From a virus, in the IMG/VR virus record IMGVR_UViG_3300043672_000009, positions 1 through 63,421 of that record: a DNA stretch of 63,421 bases. The stretch is one strand, 5' to 3'. The position numbers and the translations under genes are program-made. Positions 1 to 60,894 of the stretch are shown here, piece after piece; the first letter of the stretch is position 1, and every line of letters starts with the position of its first letter. The notes under the pieces were generated by a model. It did no database searches. It saw nothing but the letters and a program-made list of their open reading frames with translations, and was not told where the DNA came from.

Positions 1-127
1 TCTGGGCTGAAAACCTGCTGGCCGGCCCCGAAACGCTCGATGCCTGTCTGCACCGCCTCTGTGGCACCTTCCGTAACGGCTCCGGCCGCACCCATGGCTC
101 CGGCTTGTCCGAGGCGGGTTCCGAGGC
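1..127. repeat. Terminal overlap: bases 1-127 identical to 63295-63421 (circular closure or terminal redundancy)
   Basis: Base-by-base comparison of the two window ends shows an exact 127/127 match. Confidence 0.95.
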
Positions 128-992
128 GGGTTCCGAGGCCCGGGATCCCGACCTTTCCGGTGACGGCACCGATGCCGAGTTTGTCGGTCAGGCCCTCGAC
201 ACCGCCTGCGGCCAGCCCGGCGGCCCAGACGCGCGCCAAGTCGCCGCCGCTCAGGGCCTCACCCTTCTTCAACGCTTCGGCTTCGGCCTCCGGGTAGATC
301 GTGCCCAGCTCCTGCGCCCCGCCGAACGCCAGCAGCGCCGACGTGGAACCGATGTTCTTCGCCACTGCCCTCGTGGCCTGTTGCACCGCCTGTTCCGCCG
401 TGAGCTTGCCGGCGGCCGTGGCCATCAGGTCGTTGGCCTCCTTGAGCACGGCCTTGCGGATGAGCGCCGTTGCCGCTTCTTTGACGGCGCCCTTGGCGAC
501 CAGGCCGGTGATCGCGCCGCCGGCAGCAGAGACCGGGGCGGCTTGGGGGGCGACTGCCGCGCCAACTGCTCCCCCGAGTAGGGACATGGCCACAGCCTCT
601 CCAGCCTGCCCAGCAGCGTACCCAAGGCCGTACTGAGCCCAGTCAATAAGCGCGCCCAGGTCGCCATCCTTCGCGCGCTTCCATGAGGTCGTGAGTTCAT
701 CCGTGTCCTTCTGCAGGGGCTGGAGTTTCTCCATGCCCTCGGTGAAGCCGGTCAAGCCCCAGTTCTTGATGCCGGTGGAGATGCCGCCAACACCGAAAGC
801 CTTTTCTCCGGTGGCGCCCACCAGCCCGGCCACGCCCTTGAGGATTGGCACGGTCTGGCCCATCGCCACCTTGAAGCCGCGCGCGGTGTCTCCGGGTCCG
901 CCATCCGCCGGCACAAGGTCAGCGAACATGCCGTAGCTCTGCTCTGGCGCCGGTTTGCGTGCACCCGGGATCAGGTCATCGAACATGCCCAT
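1..992 (-). CDS. 5' (N-terminal) part of the junction-spanning large virion/ejection protein. It continues in 60873-63421, about 1137 aa in total.
   Basis: ATG at 992 (MGMFDDLIPGARKPAPEQSYGMF...). The frame stays open to base 1 and is in phase with the ORF starting at 63389 (position 95 equals 63389; 992-95 is divisible by 3). The sequence is Gly/Ala-rich with membrane-like segments. Confidence 0.75.
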   Translation of the reverse strand, partial: MGMFDDLIPGARKPAPEQSYGMFADLVPADGGPGDTARGFKVAMGQTVPILKGVAGLVGATGEKAFGVGGISTGIKNWGLTGFTEGMEKLQPLQKDTDELTTSWKRAKDGDLGALIDWAQYGLGYAAGQAGEAVAMSLLGGAVGAAVAPQAAPVSAAGGAITGLVAKGAVKEAATALIRKAVLKEANDLMATAAGKLTAEQAVQQATRAVAKNIGSTSALLAFGGAQELGTIYPEAEAEALKKGEALSGGDLARVWAAGLAAGGVEGLTDKLGIGAVTGKVGIPGLGTRLGTRLGQAGAMGAAGAVTEGATEAVQTGIERFGAGQQVFSP

Positions 993-3466: not shown

Positions 3467-3907
3467 TTACCCCTTGTAGAAGAGCGCGTTGCTTTGGCCA
3501 CGGTCGAACCCGTACCGAGCCAAGAGGCGGGCCATGCGCGGATCGGCCCCCTCTTCGATGGGGAAGTGCACGCGCCGGATCTTCATGTCGTCGTCCGCCC
3601 ATTTGCGAAGCTCTGCGATGAGATGGCGGCCAGCTCCAGGCACCACGGCTCTGCACATCACCACGTGCGCCTCCCAGCGTTCGAAGAACAGCATCTCGCT
3701 GGCGAGCGCTGCGATGGCGCCGACGATGATCCCGTCTTGCACGGCGGCCATGCCAAAGTGCGGCGCACCGCGGCGGACGAGTTCAATCACAGCTACCACG
3801 CGATCGCGGGCTACATGCAACGGAAAGCGCTCCGCCCGCATGCCATCGATAGCGAAGGCCGCAAGTTGTGGCACTTCGTTGGCTGCGACCATGCGGTACT
3901 CAAGCAC
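3467..3907 (-). CDS. GNAT-family N-acetyltransferase-like protein (146 aa) embedded in the ejection-protein module
   Basis: Acetyl-CoA motif-A-like segment (CRAVVPGAGRHLIAELRKWA). Size and beta-alpha pattern are typical of GNAT. Confidence 0.6.
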   Translation of the reverse strand: MLEYRMVAANEVPQLAAFAIDGMRAERFPLHVARDRVVAVIELVRRGAPHFGMAAVQDGIIVGAIAALASEMLFFERWEAHVVMCRAVVPGAGRHLIAELRKWADDDMKIRRVHFPIEEGADPRMARLLARYGFDRGQSNALFYKG

Positions 3908-3908
3908 G

Positions 3909-4823
3909 TCAATCGCCCCCGCTGTCGCCGCCAGGGTTCCCGTTGTACGGGTCGGGAGGAGGTGCTGGGGCTGCCGGCGGTGCTGGGGCTGCCGGCGGCA
4001 AGTTGAAGTTCAGCAGTTGCGACACGTCAACACCCGTGGTGCTTTGCCAGAACCTGGAGAAGGCACCGAACGAGTCCATTTGGTTCTGGATCAGCGTGCG
4101 CTTTGCGGCCTCGTCAAGGTTCGCATTGTTCTGGATGTTGCCGATGTTCACGCTCATCTGCTGCCACGCCTGCGAGATGTCGCCGTTGGAGCTGATGGCC
4201 GACTGGTTCGCGTTCTGCAGCCCCGCCAGCCGTACTTGATTCTCACGGTCCAGCCCGGCCTGCATGCCTTGAAACTGCTGCGCCGCTGCGAACTGTTGTT
4301 GTTGCTGGGTGCGCTGGGCAGCTTGCTCCGCAAGCGATTGGCCGAACTGCGATGCCTGGTTGGCGATCTGCGTGGCGTTCTGGGCCGAGTTGACCTCGAA
4401 CTGGCTTTGGTTCTGCGCCAGGCTGCGGTCTTGTTGCTGGTTGCTGTTCTCCAGGCCCAGCGCCTGACCGCCCAGCGTAGCCCCGATCTGCGCGTTCGTG
4501 GTCGAGGCGTTGTTGCGGGCGCCCTGGTTCGTGAGTTGCTGCTGCTGGTACAGGCCGGCGTCGGCATTCGCGATGGGCGTGGCGGCCCCGATGACGGCCT
4601 CTTGCGCGGCTTGCGCCGACAGGCTGGAGTTCGTGAGCCCGCGCGCCGCCGCCGCCTGCCGGCCGCGCGTGTCGGCCTGCGTCATCAGCGGCGAGTCCTG
4701 CCGGGTGATCGCATCGACCCGGCCGGCAACGCCCTTCGACTCGTCAAACTCCGCTGTCGTCGGCGTGACCTGGTTCGCCGCCGTCAGGTCCTGGGCTTGC
4801 TCCATCAACGATTTGGTGGCCAT
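3909..4823 (-). CDS. Gln/Asn-rich virion protein (304 aa) with a Pro/Ala-rich C-terminus
   Basis: ORF track. GGAG lies 9 nt upstream of ATG 4823. Extreme Q/N content. An 18-bp x2 tandem at ~3961-3997 encodes PAAPAP repeats. Confidence 0.7.
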   Translation of the reverse strand: MATKSLMEQAQDLTAANQVTPTTAEFDESKGVAGRVDAITRQDSPLMTQADTRGRQAAAARGLTNSSLSAQAAQEAVIGAATPIANADAGLYQQQQLTNQGARNNASTTNAQIGATLGGQALGLENSNQQQDRSLAQNQSQFEVNSAQNATQIANQASQFGQSLAEQAAQRTQQQQQFAAAQQFQGMQAGLDRENQVRLAGLQNANQSAISSNGDISQAWQQMSVNIGNIQNNANLDEAAKRTLIQNQMDSFGAFSRFWQSTTGVDVSQLLNFNLPPAAPAPPAAPAPPPDPYNGNPGGDSGGD

Positions 4824-26173: not shown

Positions 26174-26623
26174 CTATACCAAGCTGGCCTGTGGTGCCGT
26201 GCGTTCGATCTTCGTCACCCGCACCACAAGCCGCTCTCCGTGTTCATCAGGTTCCATCAGGTAGCCGAAGATCCGACGCACCCACTTGTCATCCACGATG
26301 ACCACGCCCTTGATGGCGTCGAGCATCACCTTCATGGCGTTGTCCAGGTCGATGCATTGCACGGTGTCGTCCCAGTCGGTCCCGAAGTCGCGCATGCGCT
26401 TCTTCCAGTCCAGTGGGCGGTGCGGTTAAAGCATGTACTCGACCTTCACGCGACCCTCAATGGGTGCCGTGATGCCGGCCGCTTTGGCGATGGCCTGGAC
26501 AGTCTTCTTGTACTCCTTTGCCTCCTTCGTCGGCACGATGGTGATGTGGCCGCCGATTGGTACGGGGCGCCAGTATTTGTTACTCGACAGGACCGGCAGT
26601 TGCAGCACGACGGGATCGCTCAT
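26174..26623 (-). pseudogene. rusA: RusA-type Holliday junction resolvase interrupted by one in-frame TAA (26426-26428)
   Basis: ORFs 26426-26623 and 26174-26395 are in the same frame. Joined reading: ...RVKVEYML*PHRPLDWKKRMRDFGTDWDDTVQCIDLDNAMKVMLDAIKGVVIVDDKWV (RusA D-x-DN ... DD signature). Confidence 0.75.
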
Positions 26624-28062
26624 AGGTCATCGTCGGCGTAGTTGTAGCCGGCGCTCGTGGGTTTGCTGGTGGACACCTTGGACTTTGGTGAAACGTCCAC
26701 CTGGCTCGGCTCCCACCGTTGCGTCTTGGGGTGGAATTCCATCGCGAAACGCACCTGATTCTCACCGTCTCTGTTCTTCGCGACACAGCACCCGACAACC
26801 CGGTATCCCGGGCACCTGAAGTGGTTCCACAAAAAGATGATGATGTCGCTGCTTTGCTCCAACGAACCACTGTCTCGCAGATCACGCATTGTGGGCTCTG
26901 GTGACGATCTGTTCTCCACCTCGCGGTTGAGCTGCGACAGCACCAGGAACGCAACACCCATGCGTTTCGCGATGGTCTTGAGGCCCTGTATGATTTTTCC
27001 GATCTCTCGGTCTCGCGTCTCGCCCTTGATGCCATCCCCGGCGCACTCCTGGATGAAGTCCAGTATGAGCAGCTTTGGTCCCTCACGCCGCTTGGATCCG
27101 ACTTTGCCTTGTATGGCGGCCAGCGTGAGGGCCGGCTCATCGTCGATGAATATCGGTAGTTGCCGCACACGTTCTGCCGACTCGCTCATGATCGACCATT
27201 CCAGGTCGTTGAGCTGGCCCGTCTTCAGCTTCGTGAGTTCGATACCGCTGTCTGCCGCCACGAGCCGGAGCATGCACTGCATCTTCGGCATTTCCTGCGA
27301 CAGAATTACCACCGGGCGGCCCGCGCGCGCAAAGGCCGTTGCGATCGCGTTCGCCTTGGACGATTTCCCGACTGATGGACGGGCCGCCAGCGCAATGACC
27401 TCGCCTGGCCTGAATCCACCATCCAGCACGCGATCAAGTTCCGGCACACCGGTAGACCATGCTGGAACCTGCGTGCCGTCGGCAAGCTCGTTCATGCGAT
27501 CCAACAGCGGCACCATCAGATCGCCGACGTGCTCAGGAACACCGCGAACACTGTGCTCCTGCAGGTTGGCGAACATCGCGGCCACGCGGTCCAGCTTCTC
27601 GGCCACGTCGCCCTCGTCGTCGAACCCTACGCTGCAAGCCTCGTCGCCCGCCGCAACAATCTGCCTCCGAATGGACCTCTCGCGCACCACCTCCGCGTAG
27701 CGCCTGATGTTTGCGGCGTTGGGGACGGCCTGGGCGAGTGAATTGACGTACGGCAGCCCGCCAGCGTCATCAGCCTTATTCGTGGCCGTGAGGGCCTCGA
27801 ATACCGTGTATGAATCGATGGGTTTGTTGGCCGCCGACAGCGCGCAGATGGCGTCGAAAATCAGCTTGTGCTCATACCGGTAGAAGTCTCGATCGTTCAG
27901 CAGATCGGCAACGCGGTCCAACGAGTCCGGGAGCAGCAGCAGGGCGCCTAGAACGTTTTGCTCGGCTTCCAGCGAGTGGGGCGGAACGCGCAGCCGTGAA
28001 ACTTCGTTGTCGCGCGGATCCGATGCGCCACCCGACAGGGTGGGCGAACTCTTCCGGCTCAT
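26620..28062 (-). CDS. dnaB: Replicative DNA helicase DnaB (480 aa)
   Basis: PPHSLEAEQNVLGALLL N-terminal motif. Walker A is ARPSVGKSS. DFIQ and other RecA-fold motifs are present. Confidence 0.92.
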   Translation of the reverse strand: MSRKSSPTLSGGASDPRDNEVSRLRVPPHSLEAEQNVLGALLLLPDSLDRVADLLNDRDFYRYEHKLIFDAICALSAANKPIDSYTVFEALTATNKADDAGGLPYVNSLAQAVPNAANIRRYAEVVRERSIRRQIVAAGDEACSVGFDDEGDVAEKLDRVAAMFANLQEHSVRGVPEHVGDLMVPLLDRMNELADGTQVPAWSTGVPELDRVLDGGFRPGEVIALAARPSVGKSSKANAIATAFARAGRPVVILSQEMPKMQCMLRLVAADSGIELTKLKTGQLNDLEWSIMSESAERVRQLPIFIDDEPALTLAAIQGKVGSKRREGPKLLILDFIQECAGDGIKGETRDREIGKIIQGLKTIAKRMGVAFLVLSQLNREVENRSSPEPTMRDLRDSGSLEQSSDIIIFLWNHFRCPGYRVVGCCVAKNRDGENQVRFAMEFHPKTQRWEPSQVDVSPKSKVSTSKPTSAGYNYADDDL

Positions 28063-28625
28063 GGTTGCGCGGCCTCGTGGTTAGATCCATTCATGCGGGG
28101 CTGCCTGGGTGTCTCGACAATGCGCTTGCGCGTGTCAGCGCGGATAACGAACTCGTACCCGGCCACCCAGCTCTCAAACCCCTTGCCGCGCTCCTTCCGA
28201 GCCATGATGTGATCGTCCTCAAAAACGCGCTGGAAGTAGCGGCGCGTCCACTTCAGCGCTTGCGGTTTGTCCGTGGCGCGCACGCTCTTCGTGTCGTCGG
28301 CGCCAATCTTGACGGCCGTGAACAGCCATACCCAAAACTGCCTCGTTGCGGCTTTGCGCTGCACGTCCATCGTCTTCACGCGTGGCAAGCGCGCATCTTT
28401 CTCCGGGTTGCAAAGCTCATCGTGGTAGATGGCGATGATGTCGTCGTACGGGCATAGCGGGATGCTTGGTGCGGTAGTTGGTCTCGGTGCCGGCGGCTTG
28501 CCAAGCGCATCGCTGCGGCCCTGGTTGTAGATGGCCGCCACGATGTCGCGTAGTGCACATCCTTGGTCGGTCAGTTCGTGGAACATCTTAATGGCTGCTT
28601 CCGCTTCCTTGTCGTCGGGTGACAT
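28059..28625 (-). CDS. Replication-associated protein (possible initiator/helicase loader, 188 aa)
   Basis: Positioned directly upstream of, and overlapping, dnaB. No motif assigned with confidence. Confidence 0.5.
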   Translation of the reverse strand: MSPDDKEAEAAIKMFHELTDQGCALRDIVAAIYNQGRSDALGKPPAPRPTTAPSIPLCPYDDIIAIYHDELCNPEKDARLPRVKTMDVQRKAATRQFWVWLFTAVKIGADDTKSVRATDKPQALKWTRRYFQRVFEDDHIMARKERGKGFESWVAGYEFVIRADTRKRIVETPRQPRMNGSNHEAAQP

Positions 28626-28632
28626 GGGCGGA

Positions 28633-29466
28633 TCATGCTTCGAGTGCCGACTTCACTTCCCCGAGTGTCAGGGCCTCCAGAAGCGTTCCTCCCGCCTCGC
28701 CCAGAACCCACTGCAACACGGCGCGCGCCACGCCAGTCGATAGGTCTCGCTCGGCCACGATTTGCGCACGCGTCCGCATCCTGGGCGCGCTGTTGCCACC
28801 GACTATGGCGCGTTGTTGGCGGGCCTTGGCGTGGCCCTTGAGCGACTCACCGGCCACCTCCAATTCCTTGACCTTGGCGCGTTGCTCGGCTGGGCTCAAC
28901 TTCGACAGTGCCCGCGCGTGCCCGACGCCGATCTTGCCGGCCTCTACCGCGTTCTTCACGGCGCTGCAGCACTCCAGCAGGGCCAGCGTCGATGTGACGG
29001 TCTGGGCCGTGCACCCGAAGATCACGGCCAGGTCTTCAGGTGTCTTGCCGTACGTGACCAAGCTGGCCATCTTGCCGGCCCGCCCCAGCGGGCTGTCTGG
29101 GGTACGCAGTTCGTTCGCTGACACCATCGCCCCAGCGTTGTCCTGCGTGCGCTTCACGGGTCGAACAACGGCCGGGATCAAGATTTTTACATCGAGCCGC
29201 GCATTGGCCTCAGCCGTGTTCTTCACGCGCTGGCGCCCGTCCACCACTTCAATGTCTCCGGTCTCCGGATTCTTGGAAACGATCACGGGCTCGATCACGC
29301 CCATCTCCATGATGTTCCTCACCATTGCCTCGCTGACTGGCAGGTGCACCCGCACGTCGTAGAGCGGGTGCGTCTCGTCGGTCACCAGAGTCAGGTCTTC
29401 CGGGAGGTACATCAGCAGGTTCGTGCTTCCGCGTGCGCGGTTGGCTTTCTTCGAGCTTTGGCCCAT
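28633..29466 (-). CDS. parB: ParB/Spo0J-like nuclease-domain DNA-binding protein (277 aa)
   Basis: ParB N-terminal box GVIEPVIVSKNPETGDIEVVDGRQRV. HTH-like middle region. GGAG RBS. Confidence 0.85.
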   Translation of the reverse strand: MGQSSKKANRARGSTNLLMYLPEDLTLVTDETHPLYDVRVHLPVSEAMVRNIMEMGVIEPVIVSKNPETGDIEVVDGRQRVKNTAEANARLDVKILIPAVVRPVKRTQDNAGAMVSANELRTPDSPLGRAGKMASLVTYGKTPEDLAVIFGCTAQTVTSTLALLECCSAVKNAVEAGKIGVGHARALSKLSPAEQRAKVKELEVAGESLKGHAKARQQRAIVGGNSAPRMRTRAQIVAERDLSTGVARAVLQWVLGEAGGTLLEALTLGEVKSALEA

Positions 29467-29507: not shown

Positions 29508-30803
29508 TCAGGACTCTGCCGCCGGTGCGTATTCCTGCCACCGCGGATAGATCAATGACCCGTCCGAGTTTCTCCAGGTGCTCGCCACAGCGGCATGTGC
29601 GTTTCTTGAAGCATCACCACCGTAGGCGCCTGGCTCAACGCGCAGCATGTACCGCTTCACCGTCCCATCCGGCTCCGGCGTGCTGTTGAGCAAGTCCACG
29701 TAGATGATCGGCTCGTCGTTCGGCACTTCCTTGCGCAACAGTCGGGCCGTGCGCAGACCGACCAGCGCATGGTCAGCGGAAATCTCGTGTACAACCACCG
29801 CGCCGCTGTCAACAACGTACTTGGCGGGACCGTACAGGTCGATCATCACGCGCCTCACCTCGGCATTCTCTTCAGCCTCAATGCGAGCCACAGTCAGGGT
29901 CGATCGGTCGTTGATGATGTCGCCCGGCACAACCACCCCGTGCACCGCGTAGGTACTCCACCCATCGGCGTAGGCGCAGGCCGGCCCGGTTTCGCAGTGC
30001 AGCCGGCCGCGGTCATCCACAAGCAGGACAGTGTGCCTATCCGTGGTGATGCACATCCCATCCATCGGCCACCACCACGCACACTCGCGCGATTGCTCAA
30101 TCCACAGGTCCAGGGTCTGCCGCTGCTTGTCGGTGTACTTGACACCGATCTTGTTGCAGAAATCGTAGAACACCTCCCAAGCGCACCAATGGCCGCCAGC
30201 GAAATAGTCCCAGTTGATCTGGCCACTGAGCTGGTCCCTGAGCTGGTCCCAGAGCTGGTCCCTGAGCTGGTCCCTGAGCTGGTCCCTGAGCTGGCCCCTG
30301 AGCTGGCCCCAGAGCTGGTCCCAGAGCTGGTCCCAGAGCTGGCCCCTGAGCTGGTCCCTGAGCTGGCCCTCGAGCTGGCCCTCGAGCTGGCCCCTGAGCT
30401 GGCCCCAGAGCTGGACCCAGAGCTGGACCCAGAGCTGGTCCCAGAGCTGGTCCCCGAGCTGGTCACTGAGCTGGTCCCTGAGCTGGTCACTGAGCTGGTC
30501 CCAGAGCTGGTCCCTGAGCTGGCCCCTGAGCTGGTCCCTGAGCTGGCCCCTGAGCTGGCCCCCGTTGGGACCTTTTTTCGCCACCATCCGCATCACCGCG
30601 ATGGCAAGCATGCCAACTGCCGGCGACGTGAAGTGCATGAATTCTGGCGCGTCTTTCCCGATCGCGGCGTACATCGCCTGGATCGCTGCGCGCGCCTTTG
30701 TCTGGTTGATCGGCCGCGTGCTGCGGCCGATGGCCAGCCACTCGTTGTAGGTGGCGCGCATTTGCGCCTCCTGCTCTTGGGTCAGTTTCTCGATCTTGCT
30801 CAT
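29508..30803 (-). CDS. Tetrapeptide-repeat protein (431 aa). It has an 85-aa N-terminal domain, about 29 QLxD-type repeats, and a C-terminal domain recalled as DUF6745-like.
   Basis: Start MSKIEKLTQEQ at 30803. C-terminal pattern DRGRLHCETGPACAYADGWSTYAVHGVVVP ... AEVRRVMIDLYG ... RYMLRVEPG. Confidence 0.75.
   Translation of the reverse strand: MSKIEKLTQEQEAQMRATYNEWLAIGRSTRPINQTKARAAIQAMYAAIGKDAPEFMHFTSPAVGMLAIAVMRMVAKKGPNGGQLRGQLRDQLRGQLRDQLWDQLSDQLRDQLSDQLGDQLWDQLWVQLWVQLWGQLRGQLEGQLEGQLRDQLRGQLWDQLWDQLWGQLRGQLRDQLRDQLRDQLWDQLRDQLSGQINWDYFAGGHWCAWEVFYDFCNKIGVKYTDKQRQTLDLWIEQSRECAWWWPMDGMCITTDRHTVLLVDDRGRLHCETGPACAYADGWSTYAVHGVVVPGDIINDRSTLTVARIEAEENAEVRRVMIDLYGPAKYVVDSGAVVVHEISADHALVGLRTARLLRKEVPNDEPIIYVDLLNSTPEPDGTVKRYMLRVEPGAYGGDASRNAHAAVASTWRNSDGSLIYPRWQEYAPAAES
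30216..30563. repeat. 12-bp tandem array, 29 units (plus-strand unit GAGCTGGTCCCT and variants)
   Basis: Counted unit by unit. Variation is confined to a few unit positions (encoding R/W/S/G/E then D/G/V). The QL codons are invariant. Confidence 0.95.
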
Positions 30804-30831
30804 TGGGTGTCTCGCGGTTGTCTCGTGTTGT

Positions 30832-31218
30832 TCAGTCTTGGACCCGGCGCAGTTCGGACGGCGTGTACTCCACCTGGGTCGGCAGTTTGTAGATGCCGGG
30901 CGGCAGCGTGTGCTGGGTATGTTCTTCATGGCGCAACGTCACCGTTTCCACCACCTCCAGGTAGCGGTCCCCGGCCGCGTCACGCCACAGCCGGGCCTTG
31001 GTCTGCGCGCGGGCGATGGCGGCGTCAGCGACCTCGCCCGCCTTCTCCAGGCCCTGGGCCACGTGGTCGTAGATAGCATGGCAGTGACCGGTCACCTCGC
31101 CGTAGGCCAGCACGATGCGGTTGCCATCGGCGGGAATCTCGGTGCAGCCATTCGGCAGGATGGCCACCGGCTGCAGTTGCACATCGCCCTGGCGGACTTG
31201 TTGCTGTTTCGCGTTCAT
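30832..31218 (-). CDS. Small beta-barrel-like phage protein (128 aa)
   Basis: N-terminal RQGDVQLQPV...GEVTGHCH pattern, common in phage hypothetical proteins. Confidence 0.6.
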   Translation of the reverse strand: MNAKQQQVRQGDVQLQPVAILPNGCTEIPADGNRIVLAYGEVTGHCHAIYDHVAQGLEKAGEVADAAIARAQTKARLWRDAAGDRYLEVVETVTLRHEEHTQHTLPPGIYKLPTQVEYTPSELRRVQD

Positions 31219-31295: not shown

Positions 31296-32960
31296 TCAGT
31301 CCCAACGGTCCAGCACGTAGCTCAGGATGCTGCCAGCGGACCACACGCGCGCCGTGGCATTCCAAGATGCACTCGACTTGCTGAGCATCAAACCGGCCGC
31401 GTGCGGTTCCTTCAAACCTTCGATGCTGGCGCCTTTGGAGTACGCCTCAATCACCGAGCGGATGCCGTGGAACTCGGCCTTCATGATTTCCGGGAACAGA
31501 GCCGCCCCTGCCATTCGCGTTTCGCGCGCTCCGGACAGGACGAATATCACGCCGGCGCCGTGGTGTTCGTTGCAACCACCCCACATCGACGGCTCCAGCG
31601 TGATCGCATCCACGCCCACAAACTCCCCGCCATCTAGGCCGAACTGGCGCGCGCTTGATCCGTGAACCCAGACGTACGACGAAACTGGGTTGCGCGCGTC
31701 TTCGTGATCACATTGAAGGATCGGTGGGGCGTCAGCGTTCACGGCTGTCACCAGGGCCGTGAAGTTTCCGATATTCGGAACCATCATCTCCATGCGCTCC
31801 GCATTCGGCAGCACGATGCACCGGAACTTATTCCACGTCATCGTCTGCGCAGGGATGCGCATGCTGGAAGGCGCCGGCTCTGCGCCCTTCGGCTTCAGGT
31901 GGCCGAACACGCCACCAGCAGGCGCATCGGGCTTGGCAGGCGCTGGGCGCCACAGAGCTTTCACCTCATCCAGTCGCGCGAACCTGCGCGCAAGCGAACC
32001 GGCCGCACCAAGCTGCGCCATCACCTTCTCGGCTGCCGCGATGGCGCCAGCGGTTGGCGCCGCCTGCGGGCGCTGGTACTGAAGCGGGCTCATCTTGGCC
32101 TTGAACGCGCTCGAAACGTTTTCGAAGCACTTGCCGGCCGCGATGTCTTCCAGCAGCGTGCCGATCATGCTGCTGCGCGGATGGCAGAAGCCGGCCGGGG
32201 CCGATGCGACAGCGCGCCACACGACGTTGGCCTTGCCAGTCCCATGCGAGCCAGCCCGGGCCACGTGCAGGCCATGCAGCCACTCGGCTTGGCCGAGCAC
32301 CTTCTCGGCACGATAGAGCGAGTCGCTGCGCAGTAGTTGTAGCGCCGTCTCCAGGTGCGGCAGTTTGAACTCTTCCAGGGCGCGCATGACCGTGTTGAAG
32401 TCTTCGCGCTTCTCGGCCATCACCTGGCTTTCGGTCTGGGTGAAGCCCTTGTGCAGCATATCGGCGAGCGGCACCACAGCCAGGTGGCGCCATGGGCCAG
32501 TCTGCGGGGTGCCCCACACCTTGTCGGACGACACGAACGGCCACATCACACGCGCCCGTCGCACTTCCTTGGCCATGGCCGCTATGGCCGGCTTGTAGGC
32601 TGCCGGCGCATCGTCCTCATGCCAGATAGCGGACGTTGCCATTCCGGCGCCGTCGATGGTGACCAGCGAACCGAAGCGTTCGATGAATTTCCGGCAGGCG
32701 TGGCAGTTGTGGTGCTGACGTTCTGCCGGGTCCGTGAAGCTGCCCAGGTAGGTGCCCCACAGGTCCCGCGCATCGGTCTGGAACAGCGGCACGAATCCGC
32801 CGTCGATGTTCGCCATGAAACGGGCCTGTACGCGAGCCAAGAAGGCTTCGTACTCTGCGTCGTCGTGGTTGCCGTGCGCTACTGCGCTCTCTGAAATCTG
32901 GATGTTCACGCTGATCCTTCGTTGCGAGGCCGAATGCACCCGGTCTCTTGGTGGTTTCAT
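31296..32960 (-). CDS. 554-aa protein of unknown function with a HHNCHACRKFIERFG Cys/His motif
   Basis: ATG 32960 in an ATGA overlap with the upstream stop. The ORF-track N-terminal extension overlaps the upstream gene and is Arg-rich. Confidence 0.7.
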   Translation of the reverse strand: MKPPRDRVHSASQRRISVNIQISESAVAHGNHDDAEYEAFLARVQARFMANIDGGFVPLFQTDARDLWGTYLGSFTDPAERQHHNCHACRKFIERFGSLVTIDGAGMATSAIWHEDDAPAAYKPAIAAMAKEVRRARVMWPFVSSDKVWGTPQTGPWRHLAVVPLADMLHKGFTQTESQVMAEKREDFNTVMRALEEFKLPHLETALQLLRSDSLYRAEKVLGQAEWLHGLHVARAGSHGTGKANVVWRAVASAPAGFCHPRSSMIGTLLEDIAAGKCFENVSSAFKAKMSPLQYQRPQAAPTAGAIAAAEKVMAQLGAAGSLARRFARLDEVKALWRPAPAKPDAPAGGVFGHLKPKGAEPAPSSMRIPAQTMTWNKFRCIVLPNAERMEMMVPNIGNFTALVTAVNADAPPILQCDHEDARNPVSSYVWVHGSSARQFGLDGGEFVGVDAITLEPSMWGGCNEHHGAGVIFVLSGARETRMAGAALFPEIMKAEFHGIRSVIEAYSKGASIEGLKEPHAAGLMLSKSSASWNATARVWSAGSILSYVLDRWD

Positions 32961-33448
32961 GTTCTGTCGGCCTGCATTGGCGCCGGCCGCTTCGTTGCCG
33001 AGCCCGACTTCGCGTTCAGCCTCTGCCGCGTCTTTGCTGGGTGGTTGCCGTGGACCCATGCCAAGCAGTGAGAAACCAGTTCGGCGCATTGCTTGGCGTC
33101 CATGTGCGCGATGTGGGCGCGCTCCTGCGGCAGGTTCATTACCACCCGCATCCACGCGTACGCGGCCTTTCGGTTCATATGGCCGCGCTCCCACAAGGCA
33201 TCGAATGCGGTGTGCGACTTGCTGCGGGCCTTGCGTGTTGCCAGGTCTGCCAGGGTCCCGAGCGGCTCCGTTCCATCGCTGTCGATCTTGACACCGTTCT
33301 CCCACCGGTACGTGCCGGCCTTGTGGGTTCCGACGTACGCGCCGCACGGTAGGCAGGACCACGCCATTCCGTAGCTGCGACCGCGGTAGATGGCCGCGGA
33401 GTCGATGAGCTTTGCGGGCCGATTGCAGTATGGACAGATTGGTTCCAC
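32957..33448 (-). CDS. Zinc-finger protein, DUF3268-like (163 aa)
   Basis: CPYCNRPAKL...WSCLPCGAYVGTH. GTG start with GAGAGG RBS. Confidence 0.7.
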   Translation of the reverse strand: MEPICPYCNRPAKLIDSAAIYRGRSYGMAWSCLPCGAYVGTHKAGTYRWENGVKIDSDGTEPLGTLADLATRKARSKSHTAFDALWERGHMNRKAAYAWMRVVMNLPQERAHIAHMDAKQCAELVSHCLAWVHGNHPAKTRQRLNAKSGSATKRPAPMQADRT

Positions 33449-51217: not shown

Positions 51218-53359
51218 CTAGTTTGCTGTAGTTACGTCGGCGCCGATCTGGATCCACAGAATTCCAGAGCCATAACTCTTGTCATGGGCGAATGTTCTTG
51301 TAATAGTGAACCCGTTTGCTGGTTGCGTTGTTGATGCAGCCTTAATCTGTGCACCCCATGTCAGCGCACCAAGGGCACCGCCCGTTGGGTTCCTGATCTT
51401 CACAACTACCTCAATGCCATCAATTGGCAATGACGGCTCATTGACAATAAATGCCGTCGCGTTATTCGGGACGATATTAAACTTCCTGCCAAGTGCCGTA
51501 TTCGGAGTCATGCTTGCCGAGTACGTCACAGTAACCCATGGATCGCCACCCTTGTCATATCCACTATATCTGGACGCTACCGACGTTTTGACGTTGATAT
51601 AGCGGTTGAACGGCTCGGCGGCGTCGTTTATAGGCGTCGTTGCGTCAGTGTATAACCCACCGATAATGGTATTATGAATGACACTGGAGTCATTCATGTC
51701 CAGGAATTGCGCGTGCACTCCAATGATGGTGTTGTACTCGCTTGACGAGAAAAACTGCAGCTTCCCCCCAAGGCCTCCGTTACCGTTGCCTTTGATGACC
51801 CCGTTTGAGCATGAGCCAAACTTCATCGCTGCCCCCTCAAAATAGGGGCCTTCTAGTGTGTATCCGTCGCAATTAGACAGGAACACCGAAGGGTTGGCTG
51901 TGCTTGTTGATAAGTCCTCCGATTGCAATAGCCCGCCAAATATGCGAATCCCAAAGTTCGGGCCTGTTGCGTCACAACGGATGCCACAGGCGCCAGCCTT
52001 GTATCCTGTGCTTGACAGCATGTCGGGATCATAAATGCTTATGTCATGGCAGAATCCACCGGTCATGTACACGTGGTGATCAATGTCGGTTGCAGTAACT
52101 ACCGGCGGAATAGTAACCGCATTGTCGTTATTGTCTGGCCATGACTTGCAATCATGAATAACGCCGCTGTTGGTATTTTTTAGCTTGATGCCAGTGCCGG
52201 CCATCATTGTGACAACGCGCTCAATCCTCCAGCGGATTGTATTGTTTGTCGTGCCGTCAACCAGGATACCATTGTTGGGGTGTGACGAATTACCGGTAAG
52301 TAGCATATCCCGGATCGTCCACTGCGACCGACCAGAACAATCAAACGTAGGCTTATTGGCTGAGCACCCGTTTATCAGTTGTGTAGCTTGTTCGTCACCG
52401 AATATCACCAGGGCTTTTGCAAGCACGGACCCAGCGGGACCCGGTGTAAGTGATTCTGTCACCAAGTATGCCCCGGCCGGTATATACGCTTTTCCCCTAT
52501 AAGCCCCAGTTCCGCAGCACAGAATTGCATTCTGTATTGCCGTCGTCATGTTTGTAGTGCCTGGGATAGTGTTTGTGCCGTATCTAAGTGCATTACCTGG
52601 TGGATACCAGTAATTAGTAGGCGTTACGCCGGCAGCCGCCTCTACAGCAGTTCTTGCGTACACGTTATTCAAGAACAGACCGAGACCAAACGTATAAACC
52701 GCGCTCGGGATATAGGCCAGCAGGTTGACGGCATTGCTCGCGCTGGTGGTGTCGGCCAAGATATCCGTGAGCAACGTGAGCCTGGCGAGCGCAACGCTCC
52801 CAGACGACAGGTTCGATGCATTCAGCGTCGTGAGGCTGGCGCCAGAGCCGCTGAATGTGGCCGCTGTGACGCCACCCGTTACGGACAAACTACCGAGTAC
52901 CCCCAAGCTCGTGAGAGACGAAGCCGTGACGCCGGGCGCCAACGTAGCCCCGGTCAGCGTTCCGGCCGCAGCCGTGACAGTGATGTCCGCTGACCCGCTG
53001 AACGGCACGCCGTTGATGTTCCTGGGGGTCTGGAGCGTGGTGGCCGTGGAGGCGTTTCCCGTCACGTTGCCGGTGACCGTGCCAGTGAGGTTCCCGGTGA
53101 TGCCGCCGCTAGCGGACAGGGTGGTAAACGCGCCCGTGCTGGGTGTCGTGGCACCGATAGGTATGTCGTCGATGGTTCCGATGGGCTCCAGGCCATTCGC
53201 GCCCGCATTGATCCGGATGAGCTTCAGTGCGTTCCCGGAGAGCGTTGGCAGTTTGTCGAATCCGGCCTCGATGGCCACGATCTCCGCCCGGATCGGCGAC
53301 GATGCGCCTGGGGCATGAGAACTCGGCGTGCCCGACTTGGTGAAGTATGGGTTGGTCAT
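51218..53359 (-). CDS. Tailspike B with a right-handed beta-helix/pectate-lyase-like body (713 aa)
   Basis: The N-terminus is shared with fibre A (MTNPYFTKSGTP...SSPIRAEIVAIEAGFDKLP). Beta-helix-type repeats. The body (51218 to ~52720) is visibly GC-poor. Confidence 0.85.
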   Translation of the reverse strand: MTNPYFTKSGTPSSHAPGASSPIRAEIVAIEAGFDKLPTLSGNALKLIRINAGANGLEPIGTIDDIPIGATTPSTGAFTTLSASGGITGNLTGTVTGNVTGNASTATTLQTPRNINGVPFSGSADITVTAAAGTLTGATLAPGVTASSLTSLGVLGSLSVTGGVTAATFSGSGASLTTLNASNLSSGSVALARLTLLTDILADTTSASNAVNLLAYIPSAVYTFGLGLFLNNVYARTAVEAAAGVTPTNYWYPPGNALRYGTNTIPGTTNMTTAIQNAILCCGTGAYRGKAYIPAGAYLVTESLTPGPAGSVLAKALVIFGDEQATQLINGCSANKPTFDCSGRSQWTIRDMLLTGNSSHPNNGILVDGTTNNTIRWRIERVVTMMAGTGIKLKNTNSGVIHDCKSWPDNNDNAVTIPPVVTATDIDHHVYMTGGFCHDISIYDPDMLSSTGYKAGACGIRCDATGPNFGIRIFGGLLQSEDLSTSTANPSVFLSNCDGYTLEGPYFEGAAMKFGSCSNGVIKGNGNGGLGGKLQFFSSSEYNTIIGVHAQFLDMNDSSVIHNTIIGGLYTDATTPINDAAEPFNRYINVKTSVASRYSGYDKGGDPWVTVTYSASMTPNTALGRKFNIVPNNATAFIVNEPSLPIDGIEVVVKIRNPTGGALGALTWGAQIKAASTTQPANGFTITRTFAHDKSYGSGILWIQIGADVTTAN

Positions 53360-56300
53360 TGCATCTGCTCCCGCACTCTCTCGCGCATCTCACGAGGTGC
53401 CGACTTGATGGTGCGCTCTTGGCGCGTCGCCCGCATCTCGCGGACCCGTTGGATGACTTGGCGCATGGTGATCCGCATCGGGGTGTCCTGGTTCTTGGCG
53501 TTCCAGTCCGCCAGATCTCGCTGCGCTTCCTTGACCTTGGCCTGGTCGCCGTCATTGAGACCCTCAGCCCACTTGCCGGCGATCTCTCCCTCAACGTTCT
53601 TTACCAGTTGGATGCTGCGCTGCACCTCCTGCATCCGGCTGGATTCGCGCGCCACCTCCGCAGGCTGGAAGCCGATGAACTTCATGGCCGCGTCCACGGG
53701 GCCGGTGTCCAGCACCTTCTGTTCCCGCTGGTTGCGGTACTCGCCGGTGTTCCACATCTGCATGGCCTTGGCCATGTTCTGGATCGCCGTGGGCGCCATC
53801 TTCAACCCGGCCTCGGCCACGTCACCAGCCAACAGTTTGGTGCCGGCGTCGATGGCGTTCTTGGCCAAGCCGCCGGCCGCACCCGCGAACTCCAGCACGT
53901 CTTTGCTCCGGTCGGTGTTGCTGCGCAGAAGGGCGCCGGTGCCCGGCAGCAGGTTGCCCATGCTCAGACGTAGGCTCATGTCGATGGGGAAGCCTGGCAG
54001 GCTGGTGAGGCCCCGCGTGGCCACGTCCGCGGCGATGTTGCCCAGGCCCAGGGTGTCGGCCACGAACTTGCGCTTTGCCGCCTTGCTGCTGAAGTCGTAG
54101 CCCAGCGCCTGCGCCAAGGTGTCGATGGCGTCGTCCAGGTCATCCGCGAACGGCAGGCCACCGGCGCCCGCCACCAGCACCAGCACCGCCAGGGCGATAC
54201 CGACCGCGCGCTTGCCCTGTGGCCCGCTGCGCCACATCCGCGCCAGGAACTCCAGATAGTGGATGCTGAACTGCTTGAACGTCATGGCGGTGGCGCCGAT
54301 CGGTCCACGCGCCCAGTTGCCGCGATTTCCTCGGTTGTACAACCCTTGCGTCTCGATCACCGCCTTCTCTGCGAACCCGAACGGGTCCGGGTTGTGCGTT
54401 TCCTTGGCGACGTTGTAGGCGGCCACGAAGGTGACGCGCCGATTGAACTGCTCGCTCAGGCTGAACAGGCTACCCCAGATGAACGCCGCCTTCTTCAGCA
54501 CCGGGTGGTTGCCCAGGTTCTTCATCGCTTCGGCTTGCAGGTGGTGGATTTCCTGCGGGCTCACGATGCCGTCGTCTTCGGCGCGCTTCATGGCCTTGCC
54601 GATCTCGCCCGTTGGCGCACCCGCTGCCACCGTTCGCGCGGCCGCCATCAGGTGTTGGGTCGCCTTGGCGAGGCCGCCGAACTGCGACAGGTAGGGCAGC
54701 GTTATCGTGATCGGCTGCGTCAGGTTGGTGGCCGCGCTGGCCACGCTACCGCCGATGAACTGGGTGAACAGCAGCCCGCGGAAGCCGGCTGCTTCTTCCT
54801 GGGGATCCTGGACGTACTGCACCAGCTTCAAGGCGTCGTCTTTCAGGTCGCCCTGCTCTTTCGGTACCTCGTCCGCCCACTTCTTCGCGCGACCCAGGTT
54901 GAGGTTTCCGCTGGCCATGCGGGCATTGCTGGTGACGAAGCTCGCCAGCACGCGCGAGGTGTCCTCGCTGAACCCGGAGATGCCCTGGCGATGGATCATG
55001 CGCTTCATGGCGCTGCGGTTGTTCTTCGTCAGCCGCAGGAAGTCCTGGTAGACCTCGTTGTTTGCGTTGCCGGTGGTCTGGGCGAACAGCTCCAGCGCAT
55101 CCAGCGGCAGCCCGGCATACAGCTTATAGGCTTCCTGGCTCATCAGTCCGCGTTTGAAGTCGGCGCCATTGAACTCCGGTTCGGCCTGCATCTCGCGCGC
55201 CGCCTTGTTGGCCTCTCGGCGTGATTCGTACATGCCGAAGAACTCGGTTTCGCCGGCGCGCGTGATGTGCAGGGTGTGGCGCCCGAAGCGCATCAACGGG
55301 GCATATCCCTCTGCCTTCAGCCGGTCCACCTGCGTGGACTTGTCGGCGATGGCCTCATAGGTCTTGTCGAGGCTCACCTTGCGATCGGGCTTCGCGGCGG
55401 CAAGCGTGTTGAAGTGCTGGTTGATGATGGAGGCGGCATCGGCCAGGTCTGCGGCGGCCAGGACCTGCGCGGCCACGGCATCCCCGTCACCACCCGCAAG
55501 CCGCACCATTTCGCTTTTTGCCAGGTCGGTGAGCGACTGGTCTACCGCAGCCCGGAACTCGTTGTACAGGCCGATCTGGGCGCCGCTGAACCCCATCCTG
55601 CGAAGTTCCGGCTCCGTGAACACCACACCCGCCCGCAGGAACTCGCGCTCGAACTTGTCGTTCACCATCTTCTCGAAGCGGTCCAGCGGCTGGCCCTGCC
55701 ACATCTTCAGAACCTGGCCGGTGAGGCGATTGCCGCGCACCAGCAACTGCGCCTTGGCCTGCGGTGTCAGCTTGTCGGCGGCGGCCTTCACATCGTCGAT
55801 CTTCACCAGCTTGTGGCCGGCATCGCGCGCCCACGACAGCGTGCCCTGGAACACGGCGGACCCGGCCGCCTTCAGGTCTGCGGCCGTCGCCTCGCCGTGA
55901 CGGAACAGGCCACCCTTCTTCAGGTCCAACCAGCTCTCCAGCTTCGGCAGGATCGTCGGCGCCATGTCGGCGGCGGCATTGCCGAAGATGTTGATGTCCT
56001 TGATGTAGTCCTGCACGGCATCGAAGACGCGGCCGAACGTCAGCGGGTGGTTCTGGGCCTTGGCGTACTGGGTGCCGATGGACCGGCCCCAGAACCCGAG
56101 CTTGCCGGCGTTGCTGGTGATGTCGAGGAAGAGGTTGCGGGCTGCGGTCTGGTTGAAGCCGCGGATGCCTTCGCGCATGGTGTCGGCGACGCTGCGGCGG
56201 ATGTCCTTCGATTCGGCCTGTTCTGGCACGCTGCGAGCCGGCGCAGTGGGCCCGTTCGTGATGAACTCGCGCGCCGGCACCAGGATGTTTGCCACGATGT

Positions 56301-57087
56301 CGGCATCGGTGAGTGCGACCTTAATGCCGATGGCGCGCAGGAACTGCTTCACGGCGGCGATGGCCCGCTGCACCAACGTTGCCTCGGGCGTGCGCTCTGC
56401 CATCTCGGCCAGGATCTCTTCAGCCACCGTCAGCCGGTCTTCGGTCTTGGCCAGGTCCATGCCGTACTGCGTCGCCTTGGCCCGCATGCGTTCGTCGTTC
56501 GCCTTCGCCACCTCATCCAGGATCGGCAGCAGCTTGCGCCCGAACAGCCCGCGCAGCCCGGCGTGCCCGATGGTCTCGTGGAACAGCACCCGCACCACCT
56601 GGCCATCGGTTTTGAGTTGGTCGGCCACCAGGTAGACCTTGCCGCCCTCCCAGTAGCCCTGCGTCGCCCCGTCTGCGCCCTGCGCCTTGGCATCCCGGTC
56701 AACCTTCTTCGCGGCTTCTGACGCATCGGCCATCGACCCAAGCACAACCACCTCCGGCGCATTGGCCCAGCCGCTGGTGACGGCATCAACCACGGTCTGC
56801 ACATCGTAGCTCGACATGCCGGCGGACGGTTCAGCGCGTTGCATCACCACCGGTGCGGGCGCAGGCGGTGGCGTGAACACATCAGCGTGCTGGGCGCGCA
56901 GCAGCGCAATCACCTCGCCCCGCTCGCCGTTGACTTGCTCCAGAAGATCATCCACCGCCGCACGCTCGGCGGCCTTGGTGGCCATGCCTGCCTTGACGTA
57001 GGACTCGATGCCATCGGTGAGTGCCCCCAAGTCCTGGGTGCCCAGGGTCTTGATGGCCCGGAGGCAGAAGCTCATTCGCACTGTCAT
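53356..57087 (-). CDS. Large ejection/internal-virion protein (1243 aa), PLxRFG-type, with an HExxH metallopeptidase-like motif and C-terminal membrane segments
   Basis: HETIGH at 56563-56580. PLMRFG at 55282-55299. Hydrophobic VGIALAVLVLVAGAGGLPF near the C-terminal third. Confidence 0.8.
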   Translation of the reverse strand: MTVRMSFCLRAIKTLGTQDLGALTDGIESYVKAGMATKAAERAAVDDLLEQVNGERGEVIALLRAQHADVFTPPPAPAPVVMQRAEPSAGMSSYDVQTVVDAVTSGWANAPEVVVLGSMADASEAAKKVDRDAKAQGADGATQGYWEGGKVYLVADQLKTDGQVVRVLFHETIGHAGLRGLFGRKLLPILDEVAKANDERMRAKATQYGMDLAKTEDRLTVAEEILAEMAERTPEATLVQRAIAAVKQFLRAIGIKVALTDADIVANILVPAREFITNGPTAPARSVPEQAESKDIRRSVADTMREGIRGFNQTAARNLFLDITSNAGKLGFWGRSIGTQYAKAQNHPLTFGRVFDAVQDYIKDINIFGNAAADMAPTILPKLESWLDLKKGGLFRHGEATAADLKAAGSAVFQGTLSWARDAGHKLVKIDDVKAAADKLTPQAKAQLLVRGNRLTGQVLKMWQGQPLDRFEKMVNDKFEREFLRAGVVFTEPELRRMGFSGAQIGLYNEFRAAVDQSLTDLAKSEMVRLAGGDGDAVAAQVLAAADLADAASIINQHFNTLAAAKPDRKVSLDKTYEAIADKSTQVDRLKAEGYAPLMRFGRHTLHITRAGETEFFGMYESRREANKAAREMQAEPEFNGADFKRGLMSQEAYKLYAGLPLDALELFAQTTGNANNEVYQDFLRLTKNNRSAMKRMIHRQGISGFSEDTSRVLASFVTSNARMASGNLNLGRAKKWADEVPKEQGDLKDDALKLVQYVQDPQEEAAGFRGLLFTQFIGGSVASAATNLTQPITITLPYLSQFGGLAKATQHLMAAARTVAAGAPTGEIGKAMKRAEDDGIVSPQEIHHLQAEAMKNLGNHPVLKKAAFIWGSLFSLSEQFNRRVTFVAAYNVAKETHNPDPFGFAEKAVIETQGLYNRGNRGNWARGPIGATAMTFKQFSIHYLEFLARMWRSGPQGKRAVGIALAVLVLVAGAGGLPFADDLDDAIDTLAQALGYDFSSKAAKRKFVADTLGLGNIAADVATRGLTSLPGFPIDMSLRLSMGNLLPGTGALLRSNTDRSKDVLEFAGAAGGLAKNAIDAGTKLLAGDVAEAGLKMAPTAIQNMAKAMQMWNTGEYRNQREQKVLDTGPVDAAMKFIGFQPAEVARESSRMQEVQRSIQLVKNVEGEIAGKWAEGLNDGDQAKVKEAQRDLADWNAKNQDTPMRITMRQVIQRVREMRATRQERTIKSAPREMRERVREQMQ

Positions 57088-60480: not shown

Positions 60481-60894
60481 TTACCCTTCGGTTGGTGTTG
60501 CGGTGATGTTCTCGATCGCGCCGTGTCGATCGTAGTTGACGTTGAAGCTCCACGGCTGGCGCGGACGGCCCGGCTCTGGCTTCGGCATGGCACCCAGTGC
60601 GGACGCAAAGGCGCGGGTCACGGTGTCGAGTTGCTGGCGGAAGCTGTCAGCCTGCTGGCGCAGCATCTCTTCCACCTCGGTGCGCGACAGGGTGTCGGGT
60701 GGTGGGGCAGTGGGCGCTGGCGGGGCAATGGTCGGCTCGGGCGCCTCGGGTGCTGGTGCCGGCGGCTCCGGCGCCACCTCGGTGCGCGCGGTGTTGAAGC
60801 GCCGGCCATCGATCTCAAGCTCGGCCCCGTCTTCCAGGGCCATGCGCTTGAGCTGGGCCGCGGTCAGTTCTCTCACGTCCCGCCCTCCAGGCAT
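60481..60894 (-). CDS. Hypothetical protein with a Pro/Ala-rich linker (137 aa)
   Basis: ORF track. Its start overlaps the end of the large gene. Confidence 0.55.
   Translation of the reverse strand: MPGGRDVRELTAAQLKRMALEDGAELEIDGRRFNTARTEVAPEPPAPAPEAPEPTIAPPAPTAPPPDTLSRTEVEEMLRQQADSFRQQLDTVTRAFASALGAMPKPEPGRPRQPWSFNVNYDRHGAIENITATPTEG

Follow-up and report, generated by a model that had tools for sequence, protein, structure and literature searches.

What does a perfectly phased array of 12-bp repeats do inside a phage gene? This question is raised by the IMG/VR virus record IMGVR_UViG_3300043672_000009, of which positions 1 to 63,421 (63,421 nucleotides, here called the window) were analysed. 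In this genome, a gene for a protein of 431 amino acids (29508..30803, minus strand) joins an N-terminal domain, a tetrapeptide array and a C-terminal region that contains DUF6745. Taken as one combined statement, we consider it probable, though by no means certain, that the array is a fast-changing in-frame repeat which gains and loses whole units and thereby retunes the host-interaction or counter-defence activity of the phage protein. The function in this statement is assigned by analogy and genomic context.

Tandem Repeats Finder reported the array (30215-30562, period 12, 29.0 copies, 91% matches, score 489) as by far the strongest tandem repeat of the window, in agreement with a preliminary description that had called it the most striking structure of this DNA. 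That description counted 29 units at 30216-30563. The array itself is real, however its register was shifted relative to the coding register (30210-30557), and it consists not of 29 equal units but of 28 clean ones and a degenerate one. The clean units (CAGCTC-NNN-GNC; 30222..30557, minus strand) read (Q-L-[R/W/S/E/G]-[D/G/V])x28 in the coding register, and the degenerate 29th unit CAGATCAACTGG (QINW; 30210..30221, minus strand) forms the joint between the array and the C-terminal region. A QLNW/QINW junction is also present in the close homologues P0001 and P0002 (P and L numbers are our handles for homologous proteins and for related loci or contigs). The phase is perfect because the array contains no indels. 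The pattern CAGCTCNGGGNC has 24 copies in the window, 23 of them inside the array, compared to 0.38 expected from dinucleotide-preserving shuffles. Read unit by unit, the array also bore out the claim that the Q and L codons are invariant and that variation runs through R/W/S/G/E and then D/G/V: CAG CTC is found in all 28 clean units, the third residue is R in 13, W in 9, S in 3, E in 2 and G in 1, and the fourth is D in 16, G in 10 and V in 2. Differences between units fall on unit positions 7, 8, 9 and 11, and all are non-synonymous. The GC content of the array is 69% (window: 64%).

Some smaller features of the array were noted. On the coding strand, each unit of the window carries a run of three to five G (NGGGN), and the two main variable bases flank the GGG core, which may bear on mutagenesis at the ends of G runs or on G4 formation, though not in all lineages. 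The order of the units (30306-30437, minus strand) suggests duplication of a multi-unit block, with units 11-14 (WV WV WG RG) resembling units 19-22 (WD WD WG RG). Since the repeat lacks stop codons in every frame, long spurious open reading frames (ORFs) run across it, and those at 29769-31076 and 30214-30750 on the plus strand and at 29894-30490 and 30487-30741 on the minus strand were set aside as artefacts of this stop-free repeat.

The array is coding, because only the Q-L-x-x frame runs on into conserved domains on both sides. The N-terminal domain (amino acids 1-82; 30558..30803, minus strand), searched with phmmer against the homologues, is conserved in the family and lies outside Pfam. 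Homologues begin with M[AS]KI.KLT, which supports the start ATG at 30803. The C-terminal region (amino acids 199-431 plus the stop codon, about 234 amino acids; 29508..30209, minus strand) contains DUF6745 (PF20530), matched over residues 227-409 with 141.1 bits (E=3.6e-41) at a gathering threshold of 27 bits. The window protein is thus a member of this family, as the preliminary description had proposed, and all 60 aligned homologues also scored far above the gathering threshold. Their alignment shows invariant residues at H269, G281, N313, E315, R318, N373, S374, Y385, P391, A405, Y425 and P427 of the C-terminal domain. An AlphaFold2 (AF2) model from the 60-sequence alignment reached a predicted local distance difference test score (pLDDT) of 85-96 in the N-terminal and 90-98 in the C-terminal domain and of about 50 in the array, which was drawn as long helices, with a predicted template modelling score (pTM) of 0.71. 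A PDB profile search gave no match to the repeat protein and Foldseek against PDB none with E<1, while Foldseek against BFVD returned only other DUF6745 proteins. Matches of the repeat to Trigger_C, TIGR00115, typeIV_Cas7 and DUF2939 were below threshold and were discarded as low-complexity noise.

The arrangement of N-terminal domain, array and DUF6745 is found throughout the family. With the repeat-free C-terminal region as query, 805 homologues were detected, all with DUF6745 and mostly metagenomic. Their layout consists of a conserved N-terminal domain of about 75-80 amino acids, a tetrapeptide array in which one position is hypervariable and the next semi-variable, and the C-terminal domain. 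With the repeat alone as query, an exhaustive search (E<1e-3) returned 1,066 cluster representatives. Among the top 150 of these matches, 140 carried the same N- and/or C-terminal domain (129 both), and the rest, except for one divergent member, were low-complexity proteins of eukaryotes without relation to the family. In IMG/VR, relatives are encoded on 520 viral contigs, and a 12-bp-period array was present in nearly all of the 80 loci fetched. Homologues contain between 0 and about 99 units. The 70 complete arrays span 6.8-99.4 units with a median of 28.8, and hence the array of the window is of typical length. Scaffold residues are specific to lineages (QLxD/G, NLxA, SVxA/D, QVxS, AVxG/D, AATx, QATx) and homogeneous inside each array. 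In the array-free members P0115, P0109, P0118 and P0102 a short linker joins the two domains, and in L086 (1-306) the tetrapeptide array is replaced by an in-frame tripeptide array of 9-bp period ([D/A]-A-[R/S/L]), so that the period of the family is not strictly fixed.

The array is kept in phages of Actinobacteria, Proteobacteria and Cyanobacteria. Among isolated phages, gp38 of the Mycobacterium prophage prophiGD102-1 has 46 units of QL[RWG][DG] with array DNA 86.5% identical to that of the window, a Manatee Spring siphovirus has 29 units of SSL[RGEW], and Microcystis phage LMM01 encodes a further member (found in BFVD). The window genome itself has no close relative in the isolated-phage collection, a scan of genome contigs gave a single distant locus, a metagenome scan gave no relative above 62% identity, and the exact window protein is absent from a collection of 15 billion proteins.

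To which sites is the variation between units confined? In total 82 arrays with 2,354 units were read in the coding frame and registered with the most variable residue in third place, and differences were scored against the consensus of the respective array. The fraction of units off consensus was.010,.011,.011,.011,.003 and.005 at nucleotide positions 1-6 and.494,.170,.033,.018,.285 and.026 at positions 7-12. Variation therefore peaks at positions 7, 8 and 11; no other position, third-codon positions included, exceeds 0.033. Codon differences were non-synonymous in 2,258 cases and synonymous in 110, a few of the latter stemming from mis-framed arrays. Pooled over all arrays, the residues are Q/S/A/N at the first unit position, V/L/T at the second, R/G/W/D/E/S/Y/H at the third and D/S/A/G at the fourth. 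In most arrays entropy is about 1.5 bits at the third position and about 1 bit at the fourth. Thus, variation is confined to two residues per unit. Scaffold codons are uniform within an array and different between lineages, which indicates that units evolve in concert. That polymorphism at the variable sites persists only 1-5 nucleotides from this homogenised scaffold points to selection for diversity or to a locally raised mutation rate, and the constraints on frame and codon position argue that selection acts on the protein.

The number of units is unstable in nature. In all eight array-bearing clusters of proteins with at least 90% identity, members differ by indels of 1-7 whole units. The closest relatives of the window protein (P0001, P0391 and P0392) have 6, 9 and 4 clean units, respectively, with zero substitutions elsewhere in the protein, and the pairs P0002/P0410, P0027/P0409 and P0083/P0400 likewise differ by whole-unit indels with zero substitutions over the rest of the protein. 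The few apparent substitutions in these clusters are almost all located inside arrays, mostly at variable positions. The repeat-less control cluster P0102 (five members) shows no indels and up to 32 substitutions. At the DNA level, L100 and L097 are contigs that share 99.8% identity over 6.5 kb without any other gap and carry 27 and 14 units, respectively, with the ends of the deletion falling in identical TGGGACCAGCTC units. In L044 and L069 the arrays are thoroughly reshuffled between flanks that are 96.7% identical. Whole-unit polymorphism therefore exists among otherwise identical natural sequences related to the window protein, and the comparison of copy number in relatives yielded the opposite of an invariant array. 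The idea of an in-frame tunable spacer or contingency locus, put forward in the preliminary description, is supported by these whole-unit differences, by the range of 0 to about 99 units and by the precedent of gp54 from phage Tweety, which is discussed below.

Metagenomic arrays have to be read with care. In about 103 related loci, 30 arrays lie at contig ends (e.g., L016, L019, L037, L052, L061 and L088), which indicates that assemblies break inside arrays. At such broken arrays gene callers report truncated or antisense ORFs, for instance L088:3772-4287 on the minus strand.

Further evidence comes from the neighbourhood of the gene. A partner gene of 128 amino acids, assigned to phrog_27831 by its PHROG match (30832..31218, minus strand), lies immediately upstream of the repeat gene. 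Among 60 loci with upstream sequence, about 57 (a count from our table) have it directly upstream of the repeat gene and on its strand, in 3 loci it lies directly downstream, and the two genes form a cassette. Neither this partner nor gp54 of phage Tweety, a published precedent, appears in the preliminary description. For the partner, 1,189 homologues were detected, with the invariant motifs RQGDV, GExTGHxHxxxDH and HEEHxxH, whose His, Asp and Glu residues suggest a putative metal site. No match to the partner was found in Pfam, NCBIfam, PADLOC or a PDB profile search, or with Foldseek on its AF2 model (pLDDT 62). The PF20530 model spans the C-terminal domain alone, and the N-terminal domain, the array and the partner gene are absent from the curated family descriptions that we found. 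In other phages, the cassette stands at the head of an early operon transcribed away from a neighbouring Cro- or GerE-like regulator gene, near genes of anti-restriction type.

The repeat gene is also mosaic. The close relative L087 has the same gene order as the window, with the partner (93% identical), the repeat gene, ParB, initiator and DnaB genes. In a blastn comparison with this contig, homology ends at 30822, at the start of the gene, and restarts at 29886 in the middle of the C-terminal domain, with flanks 82-92% identical. About 82% DNA identity is retained in the final 126 codons and across the genes for ParB, initiator and DnaB. The swapped block (29887..30821, minus strand) comprises the N-terminal domain, the array and the first half of the C-terminal domain. 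L087 (positions 3610-4393) has a different N-terminal domain, an SQV[GERW]x24 array (unit AGGTCAGGTCGC) and a different first half of the C-terminal domain in its place. Hence close relatives exchange a module as a mosaic block, and the comparison suggests that N-terminal domain, array and half of the C-terminal domain may confer specificity as an interchangeable unit attached to a conserved C-terminal stem. In L088 the partner is 90% identical and the array is of AT type; this contig ends inside the array.

The closest precedent for such an array, and the one analogue studied by experiment, is gp54 of mycobacteriophage Tweety. Its 12-bp unit varies at positions 7, 8, 10 and 11, with the first six bases and all third-codon positions fixed (PMC2884959). 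Tweety gp54 and its relatives Che8 gp57 and PMC gp51 contain 48, 26 and 15 units, respectively, from which Pham et al. (2007) inferred selection for variation (PMC2884959). According to the passages on gp54 in PMC9262239 and PMC8549241, which summarise Dedrick et al. (2017), the protein acts in counter-defence against the prophage systems of Phrann and MichelleMyBell. These passages describe the systems as prophage-encoded and (p)ppGpp-synthetase-like, and defence-escape mutants of Tweety as gaining or losing repeats, which "tunes" specificity by an obscure mechanism (PMC9262239; PMC8549241). In its sequence, gp54 comprises a 142-residue N-terminal domain, AA[GWQ][SY]x48 and a C-terminal tail of 38 amino acids, with no Pfam match. 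Both gp54 and the window protein have a unique N-terminal domain, a 12-bp/4-residue array and a unique C-terminal domain and are encoded in the early region of a temperate-type phage. In gp54 and the window family alike, the first two residues and the third-codon positions are invariant, the last two codons vary, and copy number differs between close relatives. Both arrays are GC-rich with W and G among the variable residues. The two proteins differ in scaffold (AA in gp54, QL in the window protein) and in the lengths of the flanking parts, which are 82 amino acids for the N-terminal domain and 234 for the DUF6745 region of the window protein. The window family in addition has the conserved His-rich partner gene, a comparison made on the side of the window family alone.

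How might such an array work? It is the coding sequence of a hypervariable tetrapeptide segment that joins the N-terminal domain to the DUF6745 domain in an early-region phage protein. As the units are 12 bp long and nearly identical, whole units can be gained or lost without breaking the frame, and replication slippage or unequal exchange would add or remove them. We infer slippage to be the mechanism of array change. Variants in repeat number and in the order of variable residues would arise far more often than point mutations and would make the segment longer or shorter, change its stiffness or alter the residues that it displays. The altered segment might then retune engagement of a rapidly evolving partner, most likely a defence component encoded by the host or a prophage. 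Both the adaptive nature of this tuning and a counter-defence role of the protein are probable extrapolations, the latter from the analogy with gp54. The locus behaves like an arms-race locus, considering the mosaic break relative to L087, the early-operon context and the DarB-like proteins of the window phage.

Several points weigh against this interpretation. The flanking domains of gp54 and the window protein are not homologous. BLASTP gave E=19 and hhalign of the N- and C-terminal profiles a probability of 0.2-1.2%, which rules out homology to the gp54 flanks; the window protein is thus an analogue and not a member of the gp54 family, and function is transferred by analogy only. A full-text literature search found no paper that mentions DUF6745, and no member of DUF6745 or of the partner family is studied experimentally. 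The existence of array-free members implies that the array is dispensable for the core function. High conservation of the C-terminal 126 amino acids and of the partner would be compatible, too, with a housekeeping or enzymatic function instead of that of an effector in an arms race. For the array, a rod, a flexible tether and a displayed surface are all conceivable, between which the AF2 model with a pLDDT of about 50 does not decide. Substitutions at variable positions of near-identical proteins may perhaps be unit rearrangements. Finally, some of the copy-number differences between metagenomic contigs could result from assembler collapse, which is unlikely for the arrays of cluster 1, since these short arrays (about 60-120 bp) should fit inside typical short reads.

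Might the array instead be a neutral expandable linker? It would then be a slippage-prone low-complexity insert in a permissive loop between the domains, drifting without any tuning and selected only for the absence of stop codons and frameshifts and for solubility. Such a linker would agree with the wide range of unit numbers including array-free members, with the low AF2 confidence in the array and with the one member of 9-bp and tripeptide period, in which a precise fold is seemingly not required. However, drift should bring in synonymous changes at least as fast as non-synonymous ones, and the observed variation is nearly all non-synonymous and restricted to two residues, with synonymous sites frozen. 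Moreover, about three alleles at x and about two at x+1 are kept at near-maximal entropy in nearly every array, despite homogenisation of the scaffold 1-5 nucleotides away. Retention of the array in phages of three bacterial groups and the swapping of the module as a block between close relatives are likewise not what is expected of a neutral linker. We consider this explanation, the main rival, unlikely, although it deserves to be weighed seriously.

A sub-variant of the tuning explanation holds that the array is a displayed variable surface and not a spacer. Here the N- and C-terminal domains would pack against each other, and the array would protrude so that its variable residues (R/W/G/D/E/Y/S/H) contact a variable ligand. 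The short linker of array-free members fits an insertion into a surface loop, and pTM reaches 0.71 even though a quarter of the chain is of low confidence. The variable positions use residue types that are typical of binding interfaces. On the other hand, Gly is among the commonest of them. In the Tweety precedent, as far as described in PMC9262239 and PMC8549241, it was repeat number that mattered. Display without a spacer function is in our opinion quite improbable.

A role at the DNA level had also been proposed for the array, either as a parS-like ParB centromere or as origin iterons serving the neighbouring genes for ParB, initiator and DnaB. Iterons and certain plasmid centromeres typically consist of dense direct repeats. 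Indeed, the repeat gene lies directly upstream of parB, as had been stated for the window, and both here and in L087 parB, an initiator-like gene and dnaB follow it. This neighbourhood does not extend to the family, as among 85 homologous loci with fetched flanks ParB was present in 1, an initiator homologue in 2 and DnaB in 4. L087 retains the three genes at about 82% DNA identity, and yet its array unit AGGTCAGGTCGC is unrelated to that of the window. More generally, the DNA unit is completely different between lineages, whereas the period-4 protein pattern is retained. The unit has no palindrome beyond AGCT, there is no inverted repeat using the array as a site, and no dispersed copies occur apart from one chance copy elsewhere in the window. 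The frame is always kept and nearly all variation is non-synonymous, which argues for selection on the protein. A DNA-level role is not supported and appears very remote.

Equally improbable is targeted mutagenesis, in which a dedicated mechanism, similar to a diversity-generating retroelement (DGR) or of another kind, would diversify the variable positions in place of selection on the products of slippage and recombination: variation is indeed limited to specific nucleotides and never creates a stop codon (NGG and GNC codons), a design reminiscent of the stop-free codons with targeted variable nucleotides in DGRs, and the two main variable bases flank the GGG run in the units of the window, but the variable bases show no restriction to adenine, the sequence around the variable positions 7 and 8 is a different one in lineages with AV, AT and QVxS scaffolds, no reverse transcriptase occurs among the proteins scanned, which did not cover every ORF, and the 63-kb window contains no second array-like copy that could serve as template (longest match outside the array 13 nucleotides), for which reason a DGR-type mechanism was rejected.

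Returning to the tunable in-frame repeat, what would it mean for phage biology? Point mutation and gene exchange are the usual routes by which phage counter-defence proteins are believed to evolve. The repeat "dial" of Tweety gp54 offers retuning in one step, and until now it has been an isolated curiosity. New in this study is that the same 12-bp design, in which synonymous sites are frozen and residues hypervariable, is found in the much larger and unrelated DUF6745 family in phages of several bacterial phyla, together with polymorphism of unit number in natural populations and a conserved partner gene. We suggest, tentatively and with more doubt than conviction, that the cassette belongs to a class of "tunable" phage modules for host interaction or counter-defence that is widespread but has escaped recognition. 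In such modules the 12-bp array would be a hypermutable dial that retargets a conserved effector domain by unit number and residue order, and the modules would be present in hundreds to thousands of phages that infect Actinobacteria, Proteobacteria and Cyanobacteria. If this is true, the single case of Tweety gp54 would turn out to be one instance of a strategy common among phages, to which non-homologous scaffolds have converged. Hypermutable phage loci would then form a general class, a large domain of unknown function would gain a function, and many tractable systems would become available for studying how repeat number tunes specificity. For viromics, it matters in any case that short-read assemblies break at such arrays (30 of about 100 loci), which also generate spurious ORFs in every frame.

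Other repeat systems resemble the array in part. Bacterial contingency loci and surface proteins with an in-frame variable number of tandem repeats likewise use repeats to obtain a locally high and reversible mutation rate in a gene of antagonistic interaction. Classical contingency loci switch genes on and off by frameshift, with units that are not multiples of 3. With a 12-bp unit, whose length is divisible by 3, the protein is made in every case; in contrast to the classical loci, the array belongs to a phage and not to a bacterium, and only the middle segment of the protein changes. Pentapeptide-repeat proteins of the Qnr/MfpA type (A(D/N)LXX, a quadrilateral beta-helix) share a short repeat in which a conserved small residue and a conserved Leu/Val are followed by variable residues. 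They differ from the window protein, whose period is exactly 4 residues (3 in one relative) and whose family varies wildly in array length; there is no Pfam pentapeptide match, and AF2 drew a low-confidence helix, not a beta-helix. In Bordetella phages BPP-1/BMP-1, "variable region 2" of Bbp36 is, as far as cited in PMC2884959, also an in-frame array in a non-essential early-region gene, with 9-20 copies between isolates. The layout of Bbp36 (N-terminal domain, array and short C-terminal tail) resembles that of the window protein, however its unit is 24 bp long, encodes the octapeptide GTATAGYR and varies very little within the array. Bbp36 was not taken as a family member, given its octapeptide repeat, the lack of a DUF6745 C-terminal domain by eye and the absence of BPP-1 among the tblastn matches in the phage collection, no direct homology test having been made.

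The window is a tailed-phage genome of 64% GC that encodes portal, terminase, amidase and DarB-like antirestriction proteins. Around the cassette, the genes on the minus strand are, in the direction of transcription, a DUF3268 zinc-finger protein (32957-33448; homologues in the two related loci L019 and L020), a phrog_1735 protein of unknown function (31296 to about 32900; PHROG E=3.4e-107), the partner and the repeat gene, followed by the ParB-like gene (28633-29466), the initiator-like protein (28059-28625) and DnaB (26620-28062). A sigma-70 promoter scan of the region found no promoter. Two very large proteins (53356-57087 and 60873-63389, both minus strand) match DarB-like antirestriction/polyvalent-protein PHROGs, one of them fused to an endolysin-like region, and indicate that the window phage invests heavily in anti-defence.

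Additional repeats were observed near the cassette in relatives. On L020, which comes from a relative of the window phage, there is a gene for another, different repeat protein of 244 amino acids (81-815, minus strand), with about nine copies of a 12-residue unit (DSTLDRIAAVAS) between unique N- and C-terminal regions. Extra long arrays with in-frame periods of 6, 9, 18, 21 and 42 bp are present in other genes near the cassette at L059:800-1114, L069:18-208, L071:6729-6972, L078:3058-3341, L079:3318-3698 and L080:4085-4288.

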